Positions 19,066-45,369 of a stretch of DNA of 64,000 nucleotides are shown in pieces. Position 1 is the stretch's first letter. The number at the start of each line of letters is the position of its first letter. The stretch spans positions 3,494,010 through 3,558,009 of the forward strand of contig NZ_CP072467.1 in the NCBI RefSeq assembly GCF_018437505.1, written 5' to 3'. The notes beneath the pieces were generated by a model, which saw only the letters and a list, made by a program, of their open reading frames with translations, ran no database searches and had not been told where the DNA came from. This DNA is from Spiractinospora alimapuensis (GTDB taxonomy: Bacteria; Actinomycetota; Actinomycetes; Streptosporangiales; Streptosporangiaceae). A program made the translations under genes and the position numbers.

Positions 19066-20043
19066 TCAGGAGGGTGATTCGTAGCGCGCGGCGATCGCGG
19101 TGGCCCGTCGGCGCAGGGAGACCCGCAGCCACGAGGGGCTCAGTGCCTCGGCGTCCGTCCCGAGCTGCCACACCGCCCACTCGGCGTGACGCGCGTCTTG
19201 GAAGGTCACCTCCAGCCGGAGCCAATCGTCCCGGTCTGCCTCCTCCGCCCAGAGGGAGAGCGCGGTACTCACCAGGTCCTCCCGACGCCGCGGCTCTACT
19301 CTCACGTCCACGGTGACCTGTTCGCCGCCGGTACGGAACCCGACGCTTCGCTCTTGCCAGAGGTGGCCCAGATCCACCCGCTCTGGACGCCGTGCCGGCT
19401 CGGAGAGTGTCTCAGCGGCCGTCACGCGGGCCAGCCGATACGTCCGATCCGCTCCCGATCTGGTCGCCAACAAATAGGCGCGGTCGCGCACGGAGACCAA
19501 TCCGATGGGGTCGACGGTCCTCCAACGCGGGGGCTGGTCCACTGCCGCGTAATGGATGCGCAACCGATGGCCGTGGAGTACGGCACCGCGGACCTCAGCG
19601 AGGATCTCCTCAGGGATCTCCTCTGCCTCCAATGGCCGCGAGAGGAGGTCGGCCTCGGGGTCGACGAGGAGCCTCTCGGCTACCCCCGCCGCGACATCTC
19701 GATGGCTCCTCGGCAGCGCGTCGACCACCTTGAGCATCGCCGAAGCCAGCGCTGAGCGCAGTCCAAACGGCTGGGCGCCGCGCCGTGACCCGGCGATCAG
19801 CAAAGCGAGGGCCTCGTCGCGGTTAAGCCCGGTGAGTGCCGTCCGCAATAACCCTGGCACCAGGGCGAACCCGCCGTGTCGGCCGCGCACGGCGTACACC
19901 GGAACACCGGCCGTGGACAGCGCCTCGATGTCCCGCAGCACGGTACGGGTGGACACCTCCAACTCGCGGGCGAGCTCCGTCGCCGACAACCGCCCGCGCT
20001 GGCGTAGGAGAAGCACCAGGGAGACGAGACGATCCGCGCGCAT
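19066..20043 (-). CDS. YafY-family transcriptional regulator (HTH + WYL + WCX domains)
   Basis: N-terminal HTH_11 (LSATELARELEVSTRTVLRDIEAL), a central WYL-like region and a C-terminal WCX-like region. Divergent from the RidA gene. Confidence 0.75.
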   Translation of the reverse strand: MRADRLVSLVLLLRQRGRLSATELARELEVSTRTVLRDIEALSTAGVPVYAVRGRHGGFALVPGLLRTALTGLNRDEALALLIAGSRRGAQPFGLRSALASAMLKVVDALPRSHRDVAAGVAERLLVDPEADLLSRPLEAEEIPEEILAEVRGAVLHGHRLRIHYAAVDQPPRWRTVDPIGLVSVRDRAYLLATRSGADRTYRLARVTAAETLSEPARRPERVDLGHLWQERSVGFRTGGEQVTVDVRVEPRRREDLVSTALSLWAEEADRDDWLRLEVTFQDARHAEWAVWQLGTDAEALSPSWLRVSLRRRATAIAARYESPS

Positions 20044-20175: not shown

Positions 20176-20571
20176 ATGGAACGAACGGCGATCAACCCGG
20201 TGAAGTGGTCGTTGGAGATGGGATTCAACCAGGGTGAAATCGTCTCCGGGAGCTCCCGGACCCTGTACTGCTCCGGACAGACCGCGATGGGGCCCGACGG
20301 CACACCCCTGCACGTCGACGACATGGCGGGCCAGGTCACGCTGAGCCTGGACAACCTGGAGGCCATCCTGCACGAGGCCGACATGTCCCTGTCCAACCTC
20401 GTCCGCCTCAACGTCTACACCACGGACGTCGATCTCCTCTTCACGCACTACGGCCTCCTCGCCGCCCGCCTGGGAGCCGCCCAGGTCGCCCCCACCACCA
20501 CGATGCTCGGTGTGACCCGTCTCGCGGTAGCCGGCCAGATGGTCGAACTGGAGGGAACCACCGTGGGGTGA
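20176..20571 (+). CDS. RidA/YjgF family protein
   Basis: 131 aa with a typical RidA fold signature (…TTMLGVTRLA.GQMVELEG). ATG 20176. Confidence 0.8.
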   Translation: MERTAINPVKWSLEMGFNQGEIVSGSSRTLYCSGQTAMGPDGTPLHVDDMAGQVTLSLDNLEAILHEADMSLSNLVRLNVYTTDVDLLFTHYGLLAARLGAAQVAPTTTMLGVTRLAVAGQMVELEGTTVG

Positions 20572-20787
20572 GGTGAACGCCTATCCGGAGCTCGGTGAGT
20601 CTCCGGGCCCCGGCGGGAGGGCGGGGGAGAGCGCGCGGAACCACGGTCGGCTCTCGCCCCGCCGCTACGTCCCGCGGTCACGGCTCCAGCGCGCCCCGGC
20701 ACGGCTCCTCCATTCTGGTGCCGCACATATGACCAACCACTATCGTGAGATTGAAACGGCCTATCCCCCAATCTCACAGGACGTCCC

Positions 20788-23124
20788 ATGGATGGCGATG
20801 CCACGTCAACGAATCCTCACGCACCACTCACCATCACCCCGGAATTCGCACAAGCCCTGGAGCTGCTGCACAATGGTAGTAATATCTTTCTGACCGGCAA
20901 GGCAGGGACGGGTAAGTCCACGCTTATTCGCCGATTCTTGTCGGAATCGAATCGCAAAACGGTCATTGCCGCGCCGACTGGCATTGCCGCACTCAATGTC
21001 GATGGGTACACGATTCATCGTCTTTTCTCGTTTACGCCCGGCGTCACAGAAGACACCGTGCGAGGTGACCGTTATTATCCCGCGCGATTCGTGAAGGTAC
21101 TGCGAGAGCTCGACACACTCATCGTCGACGAGGCATCGATGGTGCGCGCGGACCTCTTCGACGCGATGGCGACAGCGCTCGAACGCTTCGGCCCGCGACC
21201 GGGCGAGCGTTTCGGCGGTGTACAACTCGTTCTCGTGGGCGACCTGTACCAACTGCCGCCCATCGTCCGCGACGTCGAGGCGACCTACATCACCGAACGC
21301 TTCGGCACACCGTACTTCTTCTCCGCCCGAGCGTTTGACCGCGAACATTTCCCGACCGTAGAGCTCAATACCGTCTTCCGTCAGCTTGGCGATACCCGCC
21401 TTGTCGAATTGCTCAACGCAGTACGAGAGGGAGCCCTGCTGGCGGACGCTCGTGTCGAGTTGAATACCCGCACCCGACCCGATTTCGAACCGGCGACGGA
21501 CGAATTCTGGCTGACTCTGGCCACCACCAACCGCATCGTCGCAAAGCGCAACTCCGAGATGCTCGAACGTCTCGATTCTTCACCGCGCACCTTCGCCGCG
21601 ACGTGCACCGGCGAAACCGACTCCTTCGAGTTCCCGACTGACAAGCGCCTCGAGATCGCCGTCGATGCCCAGGTCATGTTGTTGAACAACGATTCTTCGG
21701 GGCGCTGGGTCAACGGAAGTCTCGGACGGATCACCGCGATCCGACAGGACGACGATGAGCCGGTTGTCGACGTCCTGCTCCGCGACGGCGGCACGGTGGA
21801 GGTACGCCCGCATCGTTGGGAGATCACCCGGCCCGTCATCACGAGCGGCGGTCGCCTCGAACACGAAGTGATCGGCTCGTTCACACAGCTCCCCCTGAAG
21901 CTCGCCTGGGCCATCACCATCCACAAGAGCCAGGGGCAGACTCTCGACCGTGTCGTGGTCGACCTCACGGGCGGCACTTTCGCCAATGGGCAGCTCTACG
22001 TCGCCCTCAGCCGTTGCACGAGCTTCGAGGGCCTCGTCCTGAAGCGCGACGTGCGCCCGCGTGACTTGAAGACCGACATCGTCATCCGCCGCTTCCTCCA
22101 CGGGAGCCTCGACACGAGCCAGCCGTCCGGGCATGTGTGTCTGGCCGTGCTCACCGTTGGACACGAAGGCGACCGATACCGTCCTCGACCGGTCGAAATC
22201 GCCCTTGTCACCGACGACGGCGACGAGGCCACGACCGTCGTCAACCCCACGAGCGACCTCTACTCCGCGCAGGTTGACTACGACCTCTTCGTCGACGACG
22301 TGGCTCTGGCTCCCGTTCTCACCGAGGCGTGGGCCGCGCTCTCGCCCCTCCTGGCCGGACGCGTGCCCGTTGGCGTCGGCGTTGACGAGACTCTTGGCCA
22401 CATCGACTTCGAGCTCAAACGCAACGGCGTCGTGGAACAGATGCCGCTCGGTACCGATATCCCCGAACGGCTACTGACGGACGGCGAGCGCACCGCTCTT
22501 CGCGCCCCGAGCGCTCTGGAGCGTGCCCGGACGCTGAACGGCATCGTGCGGCGCTTGGAGGTCGACTCACCGCGTCCCGCGGCGAGCCCGAGCGGCACCC
22601 CTTTCGCCAAACATCCACGCGGACGTGGGTACCTACAAGGACGCCTGAGCGAATCGTCCAGCCCGGCCGATGTCTTCACCGTCGGCGGCCACCTCTCGGC
22701 CGAGAGTGATCCGGCCATGGAGCTCGCCGACCTCCTGCGCGACGCCTGGGAGCGCGTCGTCGACCGTGACGCGCGGATCATCGCCAGGCTGCGCGATGCC
22801 GAACGGCACTTTGGCGTGACCATCCTGCCTGATGGCGTGGAAGACCTGGCGGAAGTCTCGCTCTCGACAGTGCTGGTCCCCGGAGCACGCGTGTGCTTCA
22901 CCGGCGAGGTCGTCTCCGACCGGCACGGCGCACACGGCCGCGACGCGATGGAACGCATCGCCCGCGACAAGGGACTCGCGATCTCCAAGAACGTGACCAA
23001 GACCAAGACCGACGTGCTGGTCGTCGCGCAGCGGGGCACCCAGTCGGGCAAGGCGAAGAAAGCGGCTCAGTGGGGTAAACCCGTCATCGCCGCCGACGAC
23101 TTCCTCGACTGGGTGGCCGGGTAG
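20788..23124 (+). CDS. Pif1/RecD-like SF1B DNA helicase fused to a degenerate exonuclease-like region and a C-terminal BRCT domain
   Basis: Walker A GKAGTGKST, Walker B LIVDEASMV, motif III GDLYQLPPI and motif V/VI TIHKSQGQT are present. The C-terminus VCFTGEV…TKTKTDVLVVAQRGTQSGKAKKAAQWGKPVIAADDFLDW is a BRCT pattern. The first ~1 kb is visibly lower in GC than its surroundings. Confidence 0.7.
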   Translation: MDGDATSTNPHAPLTITPEFAQALELLHNGSNIFLTGKAGTGKSTLIRRFLSESNRKTVIAAPTGIAALNVDGYTIHRLFSFTPGVTEDTVRGDRYYPARFVKVLRELDTLIVDEASMVRADLFDAMATALERFGPRPGERFGGVQLVLVGDLYQLPPIVRDVEATYITERFGTPYFFSARAFDREHFPTVELNTVFRQLGDTRLVELLNAVREGALLADARVELNTRTRPDFEPATDEFWLTLATTNRIVAKRNSEMLERLDSSPRTFAATCTGETDSFEFPTDKRLEIAVDAQVMLLNNDSSGRWVNGSLGRITAIRQDDDEPVVDVLLRDGGTVEVRPHRWEITRPVITSGGRLEHEVIGSFTQLPLKLAWAITIHKSQGQTLDRVVVDLTGGTFANGQLYVALSRCTSFEGLVLKRDVRPRDLKTDIVIRRFLHGSLDTSQPSGHVCLAVLTVGHEGDRYRPRPVEIALVTDDGDEATTVVNPTSDLYSAQVDYDLFVDDVALAPVLTEAWAALSPLLAGRVPVGVGVDETLGHIDFELKRNGVVEQMPLGTDIPERLLTDGERTALRAPSALERARTLNGIVRRLEVDSPRPAASPSGTPFAKHPRGRGYLQGRLSESSSPADVFTVGGHLSAESDPAMELADLLRDAWERVVDRDARIIARLRDAERHFGVTILPDGVEDLAEVSLSTVLVPGARVCFTGEVVSDRHGAHGRDAMERIARDKGLAISKNVTKTKTDVLVVAQRGTQSGKAKKAAQWGKPVIAADDFLDWVAG

Positions 23125-23302
23125 CGGCTGAGCGCCGTCGACGGGTGTGATCCCGGCAAGGACAGCACTCCGTACCACCTTGCCGTCAACGGCGATGACT
23201 CGTCTGATCGGCGGCGGCGCCGATGGTCGGGTACATCGCCAGTCGGCCAGAAAACCAAGAACCCCGCCCGACCGGACGGGGTTCGTAGGCTGTGTGGTTC
23301 GG

Positions 23303-23375
23303 TGGAGCCAAGGGGATTCGAACCCCTGACCTCTGGTATGCAAAACCAGCGCTCTGCCAACTGAGCTATGGCCCC
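23303..23375 (-). tRNA. tRNA-Ala (anticodon TGC)
   Basis: The reverse complement folds as a 73-nt cloverleaf with anticodon loop TTTGCAT and the G3:U70 alanine identity pair. The 3' CCA is not fully encoded. Confidence 0.9.
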
Positions 23376-25673: not shown

Positions 25674-26693
25674 TTATTCGTCCTCGGTGTCGCGGGGTGG
25701 CATTCCCCCGATGGCTTCGAACGCCGCGCTGATGGCCGCGCCGTCACTGGCCACGGACAGCAGAGCGAGCAGCAGGACCCGCGCCTTCAGCGGTGCCAGG
25801 AACCCCGCACCGATGAGCCCACGGTCCAACAAGTCGCTCTCCGATCCGGGGAATCCGTAGGTGCTGCTCATGACCGAACCGCCACCGGTGCGGGAGGCCA
25901 GGACGACGGGAACCCGCGCCGCCAGCGCACCCAGCGTTTCGGCCAGGTGCGCCGGCACGTGCCCCCCGCCGAATCCCGCGACGACCAACGCGTCCAATTC
26001 CTCCGCGCCACGCAAGGAGTATCCGTCGTCGGCGAGCGTCACGGTGACCAGGCCGACGCGAGGCCAGTCCGCCGACTGGGGACGCGGCATCGCCACCCGG
26101 CGCTCCAGGCGGTTGACGATGCGGGGGTCGCCCTCCACCACATAGCCCAGCGGCCCACCGTTGGGTGACTGGAACGCCGCGGGGGACGAGCTGTGGGTCT
26201 TCAGGACCCGCCGCGCCGCGTGGATCTCGTCGTTCATCACGACCAGCGCGCCCTCGCCGCTCGCCGTGTCCGACGCGGCGACGCGGATCGACGCCAGCAG
26301 ATTGGCGGGGCCGTCCGGACCGGCGTGGGCGGGGGAGCGCATCGCCCCGGTGACGACGAGCGGCTGCGGCCCGGTGTGCCACAGGTCCAGCAGGAACGCG
26401 GTCTCCTCGAGGGTGTCGGTTCCCTGTACGACGACGGCTCCGTCGGCCCCCTCGGCCAGCCGTTCCTCGATCGCGGCCGACAGGGCCGCGAGGTCGTCCA
26501 GTCCGAGACTCGCGCTGGAGATCCGCTTGAGGTCCACCACGTCCACGGTGACGTCCGTGGCGCGGATCCCCGGAATCGCGGCGACGAGGTCGTCTCCGGT
26601 GAGCATGGGGACAACGGGTCCGCTGTCCTGCGGCCCCATGGCGATCGTGCCGCCCAGGGTGAAGACAACGACATTCTTCGAACTGGACTCCAC
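25674..26693 (-). CDS. L-asparaginase
   Basis: N-terminal TLGGTIAM motif with the catalytic Thr, then the GxxxxHGTDT-like VVVQGTDTLEETAF motif. Confidence 0.85.
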   Translation of the reverse strand: MESSSKNVVVFTLGGTIAMGPQDSGPVVPMLTGDDLVAAIPGIRATDVTVDVVDLKRISSASLGLDDLAALSAAIEERLAEGADGAVVVQGTDTLEETAFLLDLWHTGPQPLVVTGAMRSPAHAGPDGPANLLASIRVAASDTASGEGALVVMNDEIHAARRVLKTHSSSPAAFQSPNGGPLGYVVEGDPRIVNRLERRVAMPRPQSADWPRVGLVTVTLADDGYSLRGAEELDALVVAGFGGGHVPAHLAETLGALAARVPVVLASRTGGGSVMSSTYGFPGSESDLLDRGLIGAGFLAPLKARVLLLALLSVASDGAAISAAFEAIGGMPPRDTEDE

Positions 26694-26895
26694 CGGCTCA
26701 CCCTCCTCGAATCCCGCCGTTCGGCGCCGGCCACATTACCCGGATCCGGTACCGCGCCGGCCGAGGCGGAGCACGGGGGGAACACGCGTCCGGGTACGGG
26801 ACGGCACACCTGGCGGGCGGCGTCCTCCACGTTCTGGGTGGTGCGGCCGGTATCCTTGGGCCGAATCCCGCGGCGCAGAGGCAGAGCACTCGATC

Positions 26896-41362: not shown

Positions 41363-41414
41363 ATCTCGCATCATCCCATGAATTCATCTTGCTTCATTCC
41401 TGTAAAGTGTCCCC

Positions 41415-42197
41415 ATGAGCCCGGAACGACTCATAAACCTTGGGCAAGAGCTTGGCCGCCTGAGAAAGTCAGTCGGACAGTCAGGCCGCACGTTGGCCTT
41501 CCTAGCGTCGGTCCCACAGCCGACCATATCCCGCGTTGAGAACGGACAGCGGGTGCGATCGGTTGAGGTGGTCGAACGCATCATTTCTGCTTTGCCGCTG
41601 GATGAGGGCGAGGCGGCCCGGTTGCGATCGAATGCGCGGGCCGCGTATGCGGAGGAGGCTCCTCCTCGGATCGATTCGGGGTTCTCGCTGAAGTCGGACG
41701 CTGTGCGCAGGTTGGAACGTTCGGCGACGGTGGTGTGGAGCTTTCAGTCCGCGGTACTGCCTCGGCTGCTCCGGACTGCCGAGTACAGCCAGGCTGCGGG
41801 CATGCCGCGTCTGAACAGTTCGGATCTCCTCGACGACGAGAGTCGAGCCTTCCGGTTCCTGGTGACTGAGGGCGCGCTGCGGACCTGGCCGGGTGCCGCC
41901 GAAGTGATGCCAGGTCAGCTCAACCACCTGACGTACGCGTCGACCCGGCCGAACCTATGGCTCGGTGTAATCCCCTGGTCGACGCCCATGCACACCATGC
42001 CTCCCCACGGGTTCACCGTGTACGACCAAGCGGCGGTGTCGGTGGAGACCTTCACGGCCGAGTTGACGATCACTGACCCGAACGACGTGACCGCCTACCG
42101 GGACGCCTTCGCAGATCTGGAACGCGCTGCCGTGACTGGGGACGAAGCACTGGCCGTGTTGGACACGATCCGTGAGGACCTCGGACGATTCCATTGA
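41415..42197 (+). CDS. XRE-family HTH regulator with DUF5753 C-domain (Scr1-like)
   Basis: HTH (GRTLAFLASVPQPTISRVENGQR) plus DUF5753. Paralogous to the chromosomal copy at 23802-24635. Confidence 0.75.
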   Translation: MSPERLINLGQELGRLRKSVGQSGRTLAFLASVPQPTISRVENGQRVRSVEVVERIISALPLDEGEAARLRSNARAAYAEEAPPRIDSGFSLKSDAVRRLERSATVVWSFQSAVLPRLLRTAEYSQAAGMPRLNSSDLLDDESRAFRFLVTEGALRTWPGAAEVMPGQLNHLTYASTRPNLWLGVIPWSTPMHTMPPHGFTVYDQAAVSVETFTAELTITDPNDVTAYRDAFADLERAAVTGDEALAVLDTIREDLGRFH

Positions 42198-42272
42198 TTC
42201 AGTGAATTCGTTGAATCATTCTGCCTTGGTGGCTTACCCTGCCCACAAGCAAGGTGTATAGCCCCCTAGACG

Positions 42273-42680
42273 ATGGTGGTTTTGATGGATCGCTGGTCTC
42301 GAATGTTCACCGCGCGCCCTGACCAAGTCGGTGCGGCGCGGGCCTTTACGTGTGGCGTACTGGAGGGACACCCCTCGTGCGATGACGCGTTGGTCGTCGT
42401 CAGCGAGCTGGCCACCAACTCCGTCCAGCACTCCTTAAGCGGGTGCTACGAGGGTCCGTTCATCGTCTCGATCGAGGTCCACGAGGAATCGGTACGTCTG
42501 AGTGTCCTGGACCTCGGCTCGGACTCCGAGCCGGTGCTTGAACAGCCAGAGGACGCCACGCAAGAACGTGGACGTGGACTGTGGTTGGTCGCGCAACTCT
42601 CCAAGGAGTGGGGTGTGGAGGCGGTGCAGGCAGAGTTCCTGCGGGTGTGGGCCGAACTCGTTCCCGAAACCGCCCCATGA
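42273..42680 (+). CDS. HATPase_c-type ATP-binding protein (RsbW/anti-sigma-factor-like Ser kinase family)
   Basis: ~135 aa with …VSELATNSVQHS… (N-box) and …ERGRGLWLVAQLSKEWGV… (G-box-like). This is the typical Streptomyces partner of XRE/DUF5753 genes. Confidence 0.7.
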   Translation: MVVLMDRWSRMFTARPDQVGAARAFTCGVLEGHPSCDDALVVVSELATNSVQHSLSGCYEGPFIVSIEVHEESVRLSVLDLGSDSEPVLEQPEDATQERGRGLWLVAQLSKEWGVEAVQAEFLRVWAELVPETAP

Positions 42681-42814
42681 CCGGTCCGCGCATGCCTCGG
42701 CGGCGCCGACTGTTCAACGCCATCAGCTCAACATCGGGCCAGGTCATGGATCCTGCCTTGTCTAGGGACCTAGACTCTCCCTCAGAGGACTGTGCGCACG
42801 AGGGAAGGGGGCCG

Positions 42815-43660
42815 ATGTCCAGCGAGTTTGAGCGCATTGCCGCCATGGAGGACCCGTTCGCGCTCCTGCGTGCGGCGACCGACCGGCTCAGTGAGGCACA
42901 GCAGGAGGTCACGGACCTGTCCCGGCTGCGCCGTCGCACAATTCAGGACCTGCACGCGCAAGGTCTCTCCTACGCGCAGATCGCCACACAGGCCGGCCTG
43001 AGCCGCGGTCGCATCCACCAGATCCGTCATACCGGTCCCGCTCCGGAAGGCGCGTTCTTCGGATCGGGCACGGTCACCATTGTCACGCCACTGCGGCCCG
43101 AGCCGGGCAAACCGCGGGCTGCAGTGTCCCTGGATGACCTCAACACCGGCAAGCGACTGGAGGACCTTGTCCGCTCCTTCGACCTGACGGTGCAGGACGA
43201 TCATGTCAGCGTTGACGGGGTGGTCGACCTGGATCGCCCTGGCCTGGTGGTCGTGTGCGGGCCGCGGATGTCGGAAGCGATGGCCAGGACCTACGCGCTC
43301 GATCCCGTGTTCGCCTGGGAACGTAACGATGCCGGCCCATGGTGTATTCGGGACCGGCGCACCGGGAAGGCCCACTACGCGGGCTCGGACGAGGCGCCGC
43401 CCTCGGCTGGTGACATCGGATACCTGGGTCGCCTTCCTCGGCCGGATGGTGCTGGCTCGATTCTGGCCATCGCTGGTATCCACCCGGTGGGCTCGCTGGG
43501 GGTGGCCCACTGGCTGACCACCGACATCGCCACCCTCTGGGGCCAGGTCGGGGATCAGGACTTCTCCGTCCTCATCCGTACCGAGTACGACCCGGACACC
43601 AATGAACCGGTGAAAACCGAGATGGCGACTCCGCTCTACCGTCACGAGGACGGGCGTTGA
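42815..43660 (+). CDS. Hypothetical protein with N-terminal sigma-70 region-4-like HTH
   Basis: ATG 42815 with GAGGGAAGGGGG upstream. HTH RRRTIQDLHAQGLSYAQIATQAGLSRGRIHQI. The C-terminal 200 aa are of unknown family. Confidence 0.5.
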   Translation: MSSEFERIAAMEDPFALLRAATDRLSEAQQEVTDLSRLRRRTIQDLHAQGLSYAQIATQAGLSRGRIHQIRHTGPAPEGAFFGSGTVTIVTPLRPEPGKPRAAVSLDDLNTGKRLEDLVRSFDLTVQDDHVSVDGVVDLDRPGLVVVCGPRMSEAMARTYALDPVFAWERNDAGPWCIRDRRTGKAHYAGSDEAPPSAGDIGYLGRLPRPDGAGSILAIAGIHPVGSLGVAHWLTTDIATLWGQVGDQDFSVLIRTEYDPDTNEPVKTEMATPLYRHEDGR

Positions 43661-44481
43661 GTTTCCGCCTGGCCACAGCTCGCGCCAAACCCGATCGGCC
43701 CAACGAGGACTTCGCCGCCGTGGGAACGAACGCGGCGGTCCTCCTCGATGGTGCGGGCACTCCGCCCGGAACCGTGTCCGGGTGCGTTCACGGAGTCGCG
43801 TGGTACGCCTCCACCCTCGGCGGGCTGCTCCTGGGGGCGCTCGGCTCTGCGAACAGTCCTGCCGGCGCGTTGGCTGACAGCATCGAGCGGGTCAACCAGC
43901 TCCACGCGGACACCTGCGACCTCAAGCACTCCGAAACACCCTCCTCCACCGTCGTCGCCCTGCGCTGGGATCACGCACACTGCGAGTACCTCGTGCTGGC
44001 GGATTCCGTGCTGGTCTTCGACCGAACCGGGAACGCGTCCCCGGACGTGGTGACAGACGACCGGGAAGCCGTCATGGGCGCTGAACTTCGCGGCCCCATG
44101 GACGCTCTACACACGGGGACGCCCGAACACTCCCGCGCGTGGAGCGACTACGCGGCCACTCTCGCCGACCACCGCAACCAACCAGGCGGATTCTGGGTCG
44201 CCAGCACCGATCCAAGCGCCGCAGACGAGGCGATCGCCGGTCGGGTGCCTCTGGACCAGGTGAACGCGGTCGCACTGCTCAGTGACGGTGCGAGCCGTCT
44301 GGTCGACCGCTTCCGCCTGACGACATGGCGCGCAACCCTCGATTCCCTCGCCCACGCCGGCCCTGCCGACCTGATCGACCAGGTCCGAACGGCAGAGCAC
44401 GGCGACCCAGACGGGCGACGATGGCCACGCGCCAAGAACCATGACGATGCGACCGTGATCTACGGACACCCCAGAGCCTGA
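43657..44481 (+). CDS. PP2C-family (SpoIIE/PP2C_2-like) protein phosphatase
   Basis: Carries NEDF, LLDGAGT and LLSDGASRLV motifs typical of PP2C_2 metal-binding sites. The TTG start overlaps the upstream stop (TTGA). Confidence 0.6.
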   Translation: MSFRLATARAKPDRPNEDFAAVGTNAAVLLDGAGTPPGTVSGCVHGVAWYASTLGGLLLGALGSANSPAGALADSIERVNQLHADTCDLKHSETPSSTVVALRWDHAHCEYLVLADSVLVFDRTGNASPDVVTDDREAVMGAELRGPMDALHTGTPEHSRAWSDYAATLADHRNQPGGFWVASTDPSAADEAIAGRVPLDQVNAVALLSDGASRLVDRFRLTTWRATLDSLAHAGPADLIDQVRTAEHGDPDGRRWPRAKNHDDATVIYGHPRA

Positions 44482-44603
44482 ATACCCCCCTAGACAACCG
44501 GCGGACATCGCGCTACCTTTTGTCTATACCCCTAGACAACATCAACGGGAATTAGGCGTTCGCAGCGTCTAGGGGGCTAAACGGACAAGAGAGAGGCTGA
44601 CCG

Positions 44604-45008
44604 ATGGCGATTCAAGGTGCGCTTCCGGTGGAGTTCGGAGTCGTGTTCCCGCACGGTGCTTTCGCGCTCGGCGTGGAGGCGATCACGGATTTCGAGACGA
44701 AGAAGCCGCAGATGGACAAGGCGACCGGGTTGCCGCTGTGGGCGGTGGAGGTGATCGACGCCGATCCGGAAGCGCGCGGTAAGGCGAAGTCGGTGAAGGT
44801 GAAGGTTGCCGCGGACGTGTGCCCGACACTGCCGGATGAGGTGGGCGGTATGCCGTTTCGCCCGGTCGAGTTCGAGTCGATGTCCGTCGTGCCCTACGTC
44901 GACGACAACGGGCGCCGACCGCGTGTGGCCTACTCGCTGCGTGCTCGCGGTGTGAGGACCCCCGGATCTGGGGCGCGAAAGTCGCCTGCGGCCAAGGAAG
45001 CCGCCTAG
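44604..45008 (+). CDS. Hypothetical AICE protein (134 aa)
   Basis: ORF of normal GC immediately upstream of the tra/rep operon. No motif recognised. Confidence 0.4.
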   Translation: MAIQGALPVEFGVVFPHGAFALGVEAITDFETKKPQMDKATGLPLWAVEVIDADPEARGKAKSVKVKVAADVCPTLPDEVGGMPFRPVEFESMSVVPYVDDNGRRPRVAYSLRARGVRTPGSGARKSPAAKEAA

Positions 45009-45105
45009 AACGACGGTGGGGCGGCGCGATGTTGGCGCATCACGTCGCCCCGGAATCCTCCCCCTGCTATCCCTTGCGAAGACCTGGAAGAGGTGTCCCC
45101 TCATT

Positions 45106-45369
45106 ATGTCCGACCACCCTGCCCAAGTCCGTCTGGCTGCGCAGATCTCGCACTTCCTCGCTCTGGCCGGAGAGCGGATGCGCCGCCCCGCTGGCGACGT
45201 CATGGCCCCGGATGACGACCTGGCGTTCTTCGAACACAAGGCCGCGCTGTTCACGCGGATCGCCGCTGAGAGCCCCGATGACGAGCTCCGCCAGGAGGTG
45301 GCCGCCCGCGCGCGTGCTCAACTGTCCGAGGCGTTGCGGCGCCACGGGGTGGGCGGGGGCGAGCGGTGA
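45106..45369 (+). CDS. Hypothetical small AICE protein (87 aa)
   Basis: Internal ATG of ORF 45016..45369. Its stop overlaps the traB start (GTGATG). Confidence 0.3.
   Translation: MSDHPAQVRLAAQISHFLALAGERMRRPAGDVMAPDDDLAFFEHKAALFTRIAAESPDDELRQEVAARARAQLSEALRRHGVGGGER

Follow-up and report, generated by a model that had tools for sequence, protein, structure and literature searches.

A Pif1-family helicase of Spiractinospora alimapuensis that carries a predicted pseudo-exonuclease domain and a C-terminal BRCT domain

We analyzed a 64,000-nucleotide stretch of DNA (hereafter the window) from Spiractinospora alimapuensis, an actinobacterium placed in the order Streptosporangiales, family Nocardiopsidaceae (contig NZ_CP072467.1, positions 3,494,010 to 3,558,009), and focused on a gene at positions 20788..23124 of its forward strand. 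We found that this gene encodes a Pif1-family helicase whose motor is followed by a domain with the fold of a DEDDh exonuclease, by a linker domain, and by a BRCT domain, and that the catalytic residues of the exonuclease are gone, both here and across the family to which the protein belongs. Of this architecture and its dead active site, taken together, we are nearly certain. The best explanation overall, which joins the architecture to a function and to which we assign a probability of roughly 60%, is that the protein would serve in genome maintenance as a helicase whose motor is targeted or regulated by a noncatalytic module.

RESULTS

The N-terminal half is a Pif1-family motor

The open reading frame is complete, and its product is 100% identical to an NCBI entry from S. 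alimapuensis named "AAA family ATPase." The frame and the elements of its superfamily 1B (SF1B) helicase core are as follows.

20788..23124, + strand: complete open reading frame (ATG start, 778 amino acids plus stop), Pif1 helicase, pseudo-DEDDh exonuclease, linker domain, and BRCT domain
20788..22092, + strand: Pif1-family SF1B helicase core, amino acids 1 to 435 (Pfam PIF1; phmmer against PDB)
20896-20922, + strand: Walker A (GKAGTGKST)
21118-21141, + strand: Walker B (LIVDEASM)
21151-21261, + strand: Pif1 signature and motif III, DLFDAMATALERFGPRPGERFGGVQLVLVGDLYQLPP, amino acids 122 to 158
21913-21942, + strand: helicase motif V (ITIHKSQGQT)
21997-22014, + strand: helicase motif VI (YVALSR)

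The Pfam model PIF1 matched the protein with an E value of 1e-22 (81 bits against a cutoff of 25.9), and AAA_19, AAA_30, and UvrD_C_2 matched as well. All of the SF1 motifs are intact, namely, I (GKAGTGKST), Ia (APTGIAA), II (LIVDEASM), III (GDLYQLPP), IV (VFRQ), V (ITIHKSQGQT), and VI (YVALSR). These motifs align to those of SsPif1, and the signature DLFDAMATALERFGPRPGERFGGVQLVLVGDLYQLPP between motifs II and III aligns with that of solved Pif1 proteins. When the core was compared with PDB sequences by phmmer, the top matches were all Pif1 helicases: SsPif1 (8bns; E value, 3.7e-109), DdPif1 (8bnv; 2e-89), the Bacteroides protein BaPif1 (5fhd; 8e-72), Thermus Pif1 (1e-64), and yeast and human PIF1 (approximately 1e-46). 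Models for RecD2 and RecD scored far under their cutoffs, with RecD2 TIGR01448 reaching 86.6 bits against a cutoff of 500. The initial annotation, made by a model from the letters of the window, had described intact motifs of the Pif1/RecD2 kind; every motif is present, and the family now resolves as Pif1. Judged by these alignments, the core is a true Pif1-family SF1B motor, nearer to Pif1 than to RecD2.

The middle domain keeps an exonuclease fold and has lost its active site

The motor is followed by a domain in which relics of the three exonuclease motifs can be placed.

22123..22587, + strand: pseudo-exonuclease domain, DEDDh/DnaQ fold, amino acids 446 to 600
22147-22179, + strand: Exo I relic, VLTVGHEGDRY
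22369-22392, + strand: Exo II relic, VGVGVDET
22504-22530, + strand: Exo III relic, APSALERAR, residues 573 to 581

In isolation, the middle region matched nothing in Pfam or NCBIfam, and a profile of it searched against PDB sequences (hmmsearch) returned only a spurious match to a repeat protein. Among the curated libraries that we tried, only the PADLOC model PDC-S48 detected the segment, and weakly so (E value of 4e-5). Of the domains that the initial annotation had proposed for scanning with hidden Markov models, PIF1, AAA_30, and (marginally) BRCT were recovered, whereas a domain of the RNase_T/DnaQ type went undetected by Pfam.

The fold emerged from structure prediction and from comparisons between profiles. 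An AlphaFold2 (AF2) model of residues 436 to 778, built from 24 family sequences, was confident (mean predicted local distance difference test [pLDDT] score, 85.9; predicted template modeling [pTM] score, 0.84), and the exonuclease fold was seen in the region for which the initial annotation had called for such a prediction. A profile of the middle region also aligned to the genuine N-terminal RNase_T domain of longer relatives (74% probability; E value, 2.8e-5). In addition, the C-terminal half of the protein was colinear over 320 columns with 22 stand-alone DEDDh-linker-BRCT proteins (hhalign, 99.94%; E value, 1.6e-36). The middle domain therefore has the RNase H-like DEDD fold, and the DnaQ-like layout that was first noticed from motif spacing is borne out by both kinds of test.

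The catalytic set of a DEDDh enzyme (Asp and Glu of Exo I, Asp of Exo II, and His and Asp of Exo III) is missing from this domain. At Exo I, where active relatives have D-x-E, the query reads T-V-G, with Asp replaced by Thr and Glu by Gly, just as the initial annotation had read VLTVGHEGDRY. The Exo II Asp is a Thr, and an invariant Asp, D533, stands two residues upstream. At Exo III, the His is replaced by Ala or Pro and the Asp by Glu or Arg, depending on a one-residue ambiguity in register. The segment HIDFEL, at first taken for the counterpart of Exo III, proved to be amino acids 538 to 543, in the helix directly after Exo II; the real relic is APSALERAR.

To follow Exo I across the family, we scanned the 269 related proteins fetched to that point, 152 of which carry a helicase Walker A motif. 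An intact DxETTG downstream of Walker A was present in none of the 152 helicase-bearing relatives. It was present upstream of Walker A in 44, where it belongs to the N-terminal exonuclease of the long forms described below, and the dead motif xVG...RPRPxEIA was found in 131. More divergent members (less than 50% identical) likewise lack D-x-E. Invariant positions of the dead domain include G458, R467, E470, P487, D490, A508-P509, D533, and R545. Because so many noncatalytic positions are invariant, purifying selection appears to act on a nonenzymatic function of the domain.

Could the domain still be a nuclease, or some other hydrolase with rearranged acidic residues, so that the protein is a true helicase-nuclease? 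There are invariant or nearly invariant acidic residues that such an enzyme might use (D462, D533, E542, and Glu or Asp at 578), the last of which falls opposite the Exo III Asp in one alignment register. However, both of the Exo I carboxylates, which are ligands of the catalytic metals in DEDDh enzymes, are T/x and G in every member, the His that acts as general base in Exo III is gone, and H459 and E460, directly after the Exo I relic, vary freely among relatives, unlike an active site. The long forms, moreover, own a separate and intact N-terminal DEDDh domain, beside which a second exonuclease would be redundant. We regard this alternative as very improbable. With the Exo III His and the two carboxylates of Exo I lost, we predict no exonuclease activity, by analogy with the Msm DnaQ variant D28A/E30A/D112A, which is used as an exonuclease-dead control (PMC11348249).

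The middle domain is thus a DnaQ-like DEDDh homologue that keeps the fold and is not an active member, in line with the earlier suspicion that it was inactive. The same suggestion had called the domain degenerate, which holds for the loss of the catalytic residues but not in the sense of decay peculiar to this gene, as the dead state is found family-wide. Across the sequences compared, the dead active site is universal in the helicase-fused family and ancient, as expected of a conserved pseudo-enzyme module rather than of decay.

A linker domain and a basic BRCT domain complete a protein predicted to be compact

The remainder of the protein consists of two further domains.

22588..22872, + strand: linker domain, amino acids 601 to 695, two short strands and two long helices
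22873..23121, + strand: BRCT domain, amino acids 696 to 778, basic (isoelectric point [pI], 9.8)

The linker domain is the least conserved part of the protein (mean identity to relatives, 44%); its counterpart in the stand-alone DEDDh-BRCT proteins, with which it aligns, is a longer helical linker. For the isolated tail, the Pfam BRCT match is marginal (22.9 bits against a cutoff of 22); the fold and the NCBIfam and PADLOC models identify the domain clearly and uphold the original reading that a BRCT domain closes the protein. Two residue pairs within it, T705-G706 and T737-K738, are 97 to 100% conserved. These pairs may correspond to the phosphate pocket of the BRCA1, RFC1, and LigA BRCT domains, in which [S/T]-G follows beta1 and T/S-K lies at helix 2. 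The pseudo-exonuclease, in turn, is acidic (pI 4.6).

Nothing credible as a clamp-binding motif was found in the protein, and the chain ends at the BRCT boundary. One candidate, QLPLKL at residue 367, was discarded, as it lies inside the helicase core, in an invariant segment directly before motif V. A full-length AF2 model (39 sequences) gave a pLDDT of 84.7 and a pTM of 0.75, and the connection between helicase and pseudo-exonuclease is only about 10 residues long. The model suggests that the four modules form one compact body rather than a motor with a loosely tethered tail.

The protein is an ordinary member of a widespread actinobacterial family

The closest relatives are 63 to 70% identical over 98 to 99% of the length and come from Leucobacter, Microbacterium, Brachybacterium, Brevibacterium, Demequina, Bogoriella, Acidipropionibacterium, Schaalia, and Gordonia. 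The architecture is present in many species of Brachybacterium, Demequina, and Leucobacter, and the combination of helicase, dead exonuclease, and BRCT is common in actinobacteria. A profile of the C-terminal half retrieved 1104 cluster representatives at E values of 1e-3 or below and 418 at 1e-10 or below; these are representatives of 50%-identity clusters, and they include gene fragments and stand-alone active DEDDh-BRCT proteins.

Three length classes can be told apart. The query belongs to the short forms of approximately 770 to 790 amino acids, and a second class has an uncharacterized N-terminal extension of approximately 130 amino acids. Long forms of 1000 to 1230 amino acids begin with an active DEDDh exonuclease, in most cases accompanied by an Lsr2 DNA-binding domain; both are absent from the query, and no relic of either was found upstream of its start. 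These long forms (P0044, P0062, P0064, P0066, and approximately 40 others) therefore hold two domains of exonuclease fold, of which the dead one follows the helicase. The best NCBIfam match of their N-terminal domain is NF004719 (E value, 1e-48), and Brachybacterium holds both short and long forms. The gene in S. alimapuensis is an ordinary member of its family.

We also noted two kinds of unusual relative. Six divergent members of 979 to 1360 amino acids (P0123, P0124, P0125, P0127, P0188, and P0263) have a second BRCT-like segment after the first and end in a hydrophobic stretch resembling two transmembrane helices, followed by an Arg/Lys-rich tail. Their sequences suggest membrane-anchored Pif1 variants. 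Three short proteins, P0157 (372 amino acids), P0159 (397 amino acids), and P0141 (336 amino acids), are apparently stand-alone versions of the dead exonuclease, linker, and BRCT with no helicase, and may be split genes, fragments, or independent proteins.

In the four genomic contexts of relatives that we read, the helicase gene is solitary, its neighbors are metabolic, and no partner is conserved, although in some cases there are restriction, Abi, or toxin-antitoxin genes at a distance of 4 to 8 kb. Two nearly identical loci with the same helicase, L087 and L088, differ in their defense content 4 to 8 kb upstream, where one has a type I restriction system and GmrSD and the other has Abi_2, a methyltransferase, and Mrr; this points to a defense-island hotspot that lies near the helicase and does not include it. 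The architecture was not found among PLSDB plasmids, in which only matches at the level of the Pif1 core occurred (40% identity or less). The only full-length "phage" match, MT835623.1, was rejected as a misfiled bacterial fragment that has no phage genes. This contig (L089), filed in GenBank as "UNVERIFIED: Bacteriophage sp." and derived from human feces, is high in GC and carries a long-form member of the family next to genes for a flavin adenine dinucleotide (FAD) oxidase, an ABC-class ATPase, major facilitator superfamily (MFS) and TauE transporters, a rhodanese, OGG, and an IS481 transposase.

These contexts bear on whether the protein might be a single-gene defense helicase against phages or plasmids, its motor working on invading DNA while the module of DEDDh-BRCT descent detects a phage protein or the end of a foreign DNA. 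Such a role would fit the stand-alone active relatives of the C-terminal half, which are end-to-end members of PDC-S48 (E values, 1e-88 to 1e-102), a model that the query itself matches colinearly. It would also fit the type I and type III restriction, GmrSD, Abi_2, Mrr, and HipBA genes found 4 to 8 kb away in some relatives, and a gene that adjoins a tRNA and has its nearest relatives outside its own order. Yet the PDC systems are themselves untested candidates nominated through guilt by embedding (bioRxiv 10.1101/2024.01.29.577857), the query fits only fragments of PDC-S48, without the catalytic residues, and its other PADLOC matches are generic to SF1B. The immediate neighbors are metabolic, there is no conserved partner, and the short form comes without an effector nuclease. 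A gene that keeps 63 to 70% identity across orders, in many species of several genera, has the look of a conserved chromosomal function, and the architecture is carried neither by plasmids nor by true phages. We therefore consider a defense role unlikely, and the evidence does not favor the initial annotation's proposal of a defense helicase.

The gene stands alone between a RidA gene and a tRNA gene

As the initial annotation had it, the helicase gene lies alone between a RidA-family gene and a tRNA gene. The features surrounding it are listed below.

19066-20043, - strand: HTH_11-WYL-WCX regulator, divergent from the RidA-family gene
20176-20571, + strand: RidA-family gene (PF01042), upstream of the helicase gene
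20745..20777, + strand: perfect 9-bp inverted repeat, GTGAGATTG-N15-CAATCTCAC, abutting a likely AGGA ribosome-binding site and the ATG
23259-23284, - strand: terminator hairpin of tRNA-Ala(TGC)
23301..23375, - strand: tRNA-Ala(TGC), convergent with the helicase gene

Further neighbors encode an Fe/Mn superoxide dismutase, a MerR regulator, a luciferase-like oxidoreductase, an HTH-DUF5753 regulator, and an asparaginase, and no integrase or other mobility gene was found among them. The inverted repeat forms a hairpin in the minimum free energy fold, in a region that as a whole is not significantly structured (z-score, -1.2); on its sequence, it could be an operator or a hairpin of the 5' untranslated region.

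The WYL-WCX/RidA pair is kept in 59 of 80 fetched loci from diverse actinobacteria, and the helicase occurs in none of the 59. A functional tie between helicase and pair was thus rejected, and we treat them as unrelated neighbors. The loci with this two-gene module come from Streptomyces, Nonomuraea, Nocardia, and Frankia, and even from metagenome-assembled genomes of Chloroflexota and Rubrobacteraceae, with protein identities of 72 to 80% that are unusually high for taxa so distant.

Base composition and phyletic affinity leave horizontal acquisition plausible

The 5' end of the gene departs from the composition of its surroundings.

20788..21237, + strand: 5' segment with anomalously low GC content at third codon positions (GC3), codons 1 to 150

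Overall GC is 0.55 to 0.63 in the first 1 kb of the gene and 0.64 to 0.69 in the remainder, compared to 0.68 for the window. As a reference for GC3, we used 291 coding windows of 100 codons from the same 64 kb. Codons 1 to 100 have a GC3 of 0.58 (z-score, -3.8), a value matched or undercut by 0.3% of the reference windows, and codons 51 to 150 have a GC3 of 0.66 (z-score, -2.7). Codons 100 to 300 are only mildly low (0.74 to 0.77), and the gene as a whole has a GC3 of 0.78 (z-score, -1.4). The profile is therefore not uniform, and the low GC and A/T-ending codons that the initial annotation had ascribed to the first ~1 kb are real over about 450 nucleotides (some 150 codons) and overstated beyond them. 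The genes of four relatives have a uniform GC3 of 0.85 to 0.94 and do not share the dip. A mosaic origin of the 5' end was rejected, as the same relatives are nearest along the whole protein. The dip is a peculiarity of synonymous sites in this copy.

Relaxed selection could produce such a 5' end if the gene had been acquired and were now decaying or functionally inert in its host, and both the strongly atypical GC3 of the first ~150 codons and the mixed phyletic affinity of the neighborhood would suit it. The open reading frame, though, is full length, with no frameshift or stop, and all of the helicase motifs and nearly all of the family-invariant residues are kept, including those in the low-GC3 segment. 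Because that segment is 70 to 80% identical to the relatives at the protein level, the anomaly is confined to synonymous sites, which further weakens the case for decay. We give it very little credence.

Three observations speak for transfer of the gene into Spiractinospora: all of its best 120 matches are outside Streptosporangiales or of unknown taxonomy, it adjoins the 3' end of tRNA-Ala, and the WYL-RidA module in the 59 other loci is never accompanied by the helicase. Others weigh against it. The 27-nucleotide 3' end of tRNA-Ala occurs only once in the window (allowing up to 3 mismatches), and a genomic island at this tRNA is unsupported, with neither an attachment (att) repeat nor an adjacent integrase. 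The relatives' genes have higher rather than lower GC3. Finally, the asparaginase (25674-26735, - strand), used as a phyletic control, has Nocardia, Actinokineospora, and Alloactinosynnema as its best named relatives, at ~60% identity and with no Nocardiopsidaceae, and so it is equally foreign to the family and leaves the helicase no sharper argument for transfer. Because of the affinities of the asparaginase and of the WYL-RidA module, the neighborhood looks like accessory genome, and these sequence matches suggest a stretch of chromosome of mixed affinity. We find horizontal acquisition plausible, if unproven, and lean slightly toward it; foreign best matches and tRNA adjacency support this part of the initial annotation, and the lack of an integrase or att repeat and an equally odd control gene count against it. 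Elsewhere in the window, a run of four open reading frames (41406-45317) has a GC3 of 0.73 to 0.77 against a norm of 0.80 to 0.92, and may be another compositionally atypical block.

DISCUSSION

By homology, the protein would be an ATP-driven 5'->3' DNA helicase of the Pif1 family, one that we expect to unwind DNA without degrading it. Its C-terminal 45% probably descends from a DEDDh-exonuclease-linker-BRCT protein whose active site was lost long ago, of the family that includes the PADLOC candidate PDC-S48 and, more distantly, actinobacterial DnaQ. We propose that pseudo-exonuclease and BRCT now form a fixed, noncatalytic unit through which the motor is targeted or regulated. The best candidate for ligand binding is the basic BRCT with its TG/TK pair, which may recognize a phosphate-bearing ligand, be it DNA with a 5'-phosphorylated end or a partner protein. 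The acidic dead exonuclease may contact a partner protein or a 3' end, and we consider a surface for protein contacts or autoregulation more likely here than a general DNA binder. The role of the whole would be genome maintenance in a high-GC chromosome, namely, replication or repair past G-quadruplexes, R-loops, protein blocks, and gaps. The housekeeping-like setting of the relatives, with a solitary gene, metabolic neighbors, and a presence in many species, supports maintenance. On its own, we hold this functional reading at about even odds.

Several points weigh against it. The biological role is drawn from the biochemistry of the domains, and the pI of 4.6 argues against a general surface for single-stranded DNA (ssDNA) such as WYL. 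A clamp-binding motif is missing, the active proteins most closely related to the C-terminal module form a candidate defense family, and some relatives lie 4 to 8 kb from restriction, Abi, or toxin-antitoxin genes. With D462, D533, and E542 and with Glu or Asp at 578 as invariant acidic residues, there is a slight possibility that catalysis persists in a residual or altered form.

A more specific version of the maintenance role, which we offer as speculative and rather doubtful, is that the dead-DnaQ and BRCT module mimics the actinobacterial proofreader DnaQ and docks Pif1 on the replicase (the PHP domain of DnaE1 or the clamp region) at the site of DnaQ. If so, actinobacteria would possess a replisome-tethered accessory helicase, a counterpart of the PCNA- or replisome-recruited eukaryotic Pif1 and Rrm3, and in the long forms a functional exonuclease would be restored, alongside an Lsr2 DNA-binding domain.

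In surveys of prokaryotic Pif1 proteins and the structural papers on them, in work on DnaQ-BRCT proteins, and in a review of the DinG family, we found no account of a Pif1 helicase that combines a dead DEDDh domain with a BRCT domain; the proteins themselves are already in databases, only under the generic name "AAA family ATPase." Recognizing the dead exonuclease-BRCT module corrects that annotation. The roles of bacterial Pif1 proteins, and how their nonhelicase domains steer them, are little understood, and in this large actinobacterial family the motor carries a conserved pseudo-exonuclease and a BRCT as permanent attachments. The TG/TK pair of the BRCT and the conserved GDRYRPRPVEIA surface offer a handle on targeting, for which phosphorylated DNA ends, the replisome, and possibly invading DNA are the conceivable destinations.

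Comparison with known systems

Among Pif1 helicases, TePif1, DdPif1, and SsPif1 have a C-terminal WYL domain that binds ssDNA and modulates unwinding (PMC9964779; bioRxiv 10.1101/163188). The query shares with them the Pif1 core and the layout in which an accessory module directly follows it at the C terminus. In place of WYL, its module is a dead DEDDh domain, a linker, and a BRCT (~340 amino acids), of which the exonuclease part is acidic.

The C-terminal half is homologous to and colinear with PDC-S48, a stand-alone protein of approximately 380 to 430 amino acids made of a DEDDh exonuclease, a helical linker, and a BRCT, and the two BRCT domains are very similar (RVCFTG...VTK..D.LV....SGKAKKA). 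In PDC-S48 proteins, which lack a helicase, the motifs DxETTG, HNxxFD, and HxAxxDA are intact, whereas the query has lost the Exo I and His residues, has a shorter linker, and carries the module fused behind a Pif1 motor. True members match model positions 1 to 404 at E values of 1e-90 or better; the query matches positions 21 to 108 and 330 to 405 of 411 and is thus not a PDC-S48 protein.

Mycobacterial DnaQ (NCBIfam NF004719/PRK06063) has the same order of exonuclease and then BRCT. Its BRCT is essential for function, and the authors of that work propose that it binds DnaQ to the replicase (PMC11348249). The BRCT of the query matches NF004719 at positions 232 to 306 (E value, 7e-9), and with 29 to 35 bits against a cutoff of 389, over the BRCT segment only, the query falls outside that family. 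In contrast to the query, which is fused to a helicase and lacks both this motif and the catalytic residues, mycobacterial DnaQ ends in a Q[Y/L]ALF clamp-binding motif.

For pExoDinG, a regulatory or ssDNA-binding role of the pseudo-exonuclease has been proposed (PMC11981726). pExoDinG and ExoDinG are superfamily 2 Fe-S DinG helicases with an N-terminal pseudo- or active exonuclease, whereas the query is an SF1B Pif1; the dead domain of pExoDinG is N-terminal and DEDDy-like, and that of the query is C-terminal, DEDDh-like, and followed by a BRCT. In RecC of RecBCD and in AddB, inactivated catalytic folds are kept beside an active SF1 motor as modules for guiding or recognizing DNA. Those systems are multisubunit complexes with active nucleases, whereas the query is a single polypeptide and, as a short form, has no nuclease. 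Alongside pExoDinG, the present family adds a clear SF1B case in which a helicase has retained an inactive nuclease fold as a functional component.

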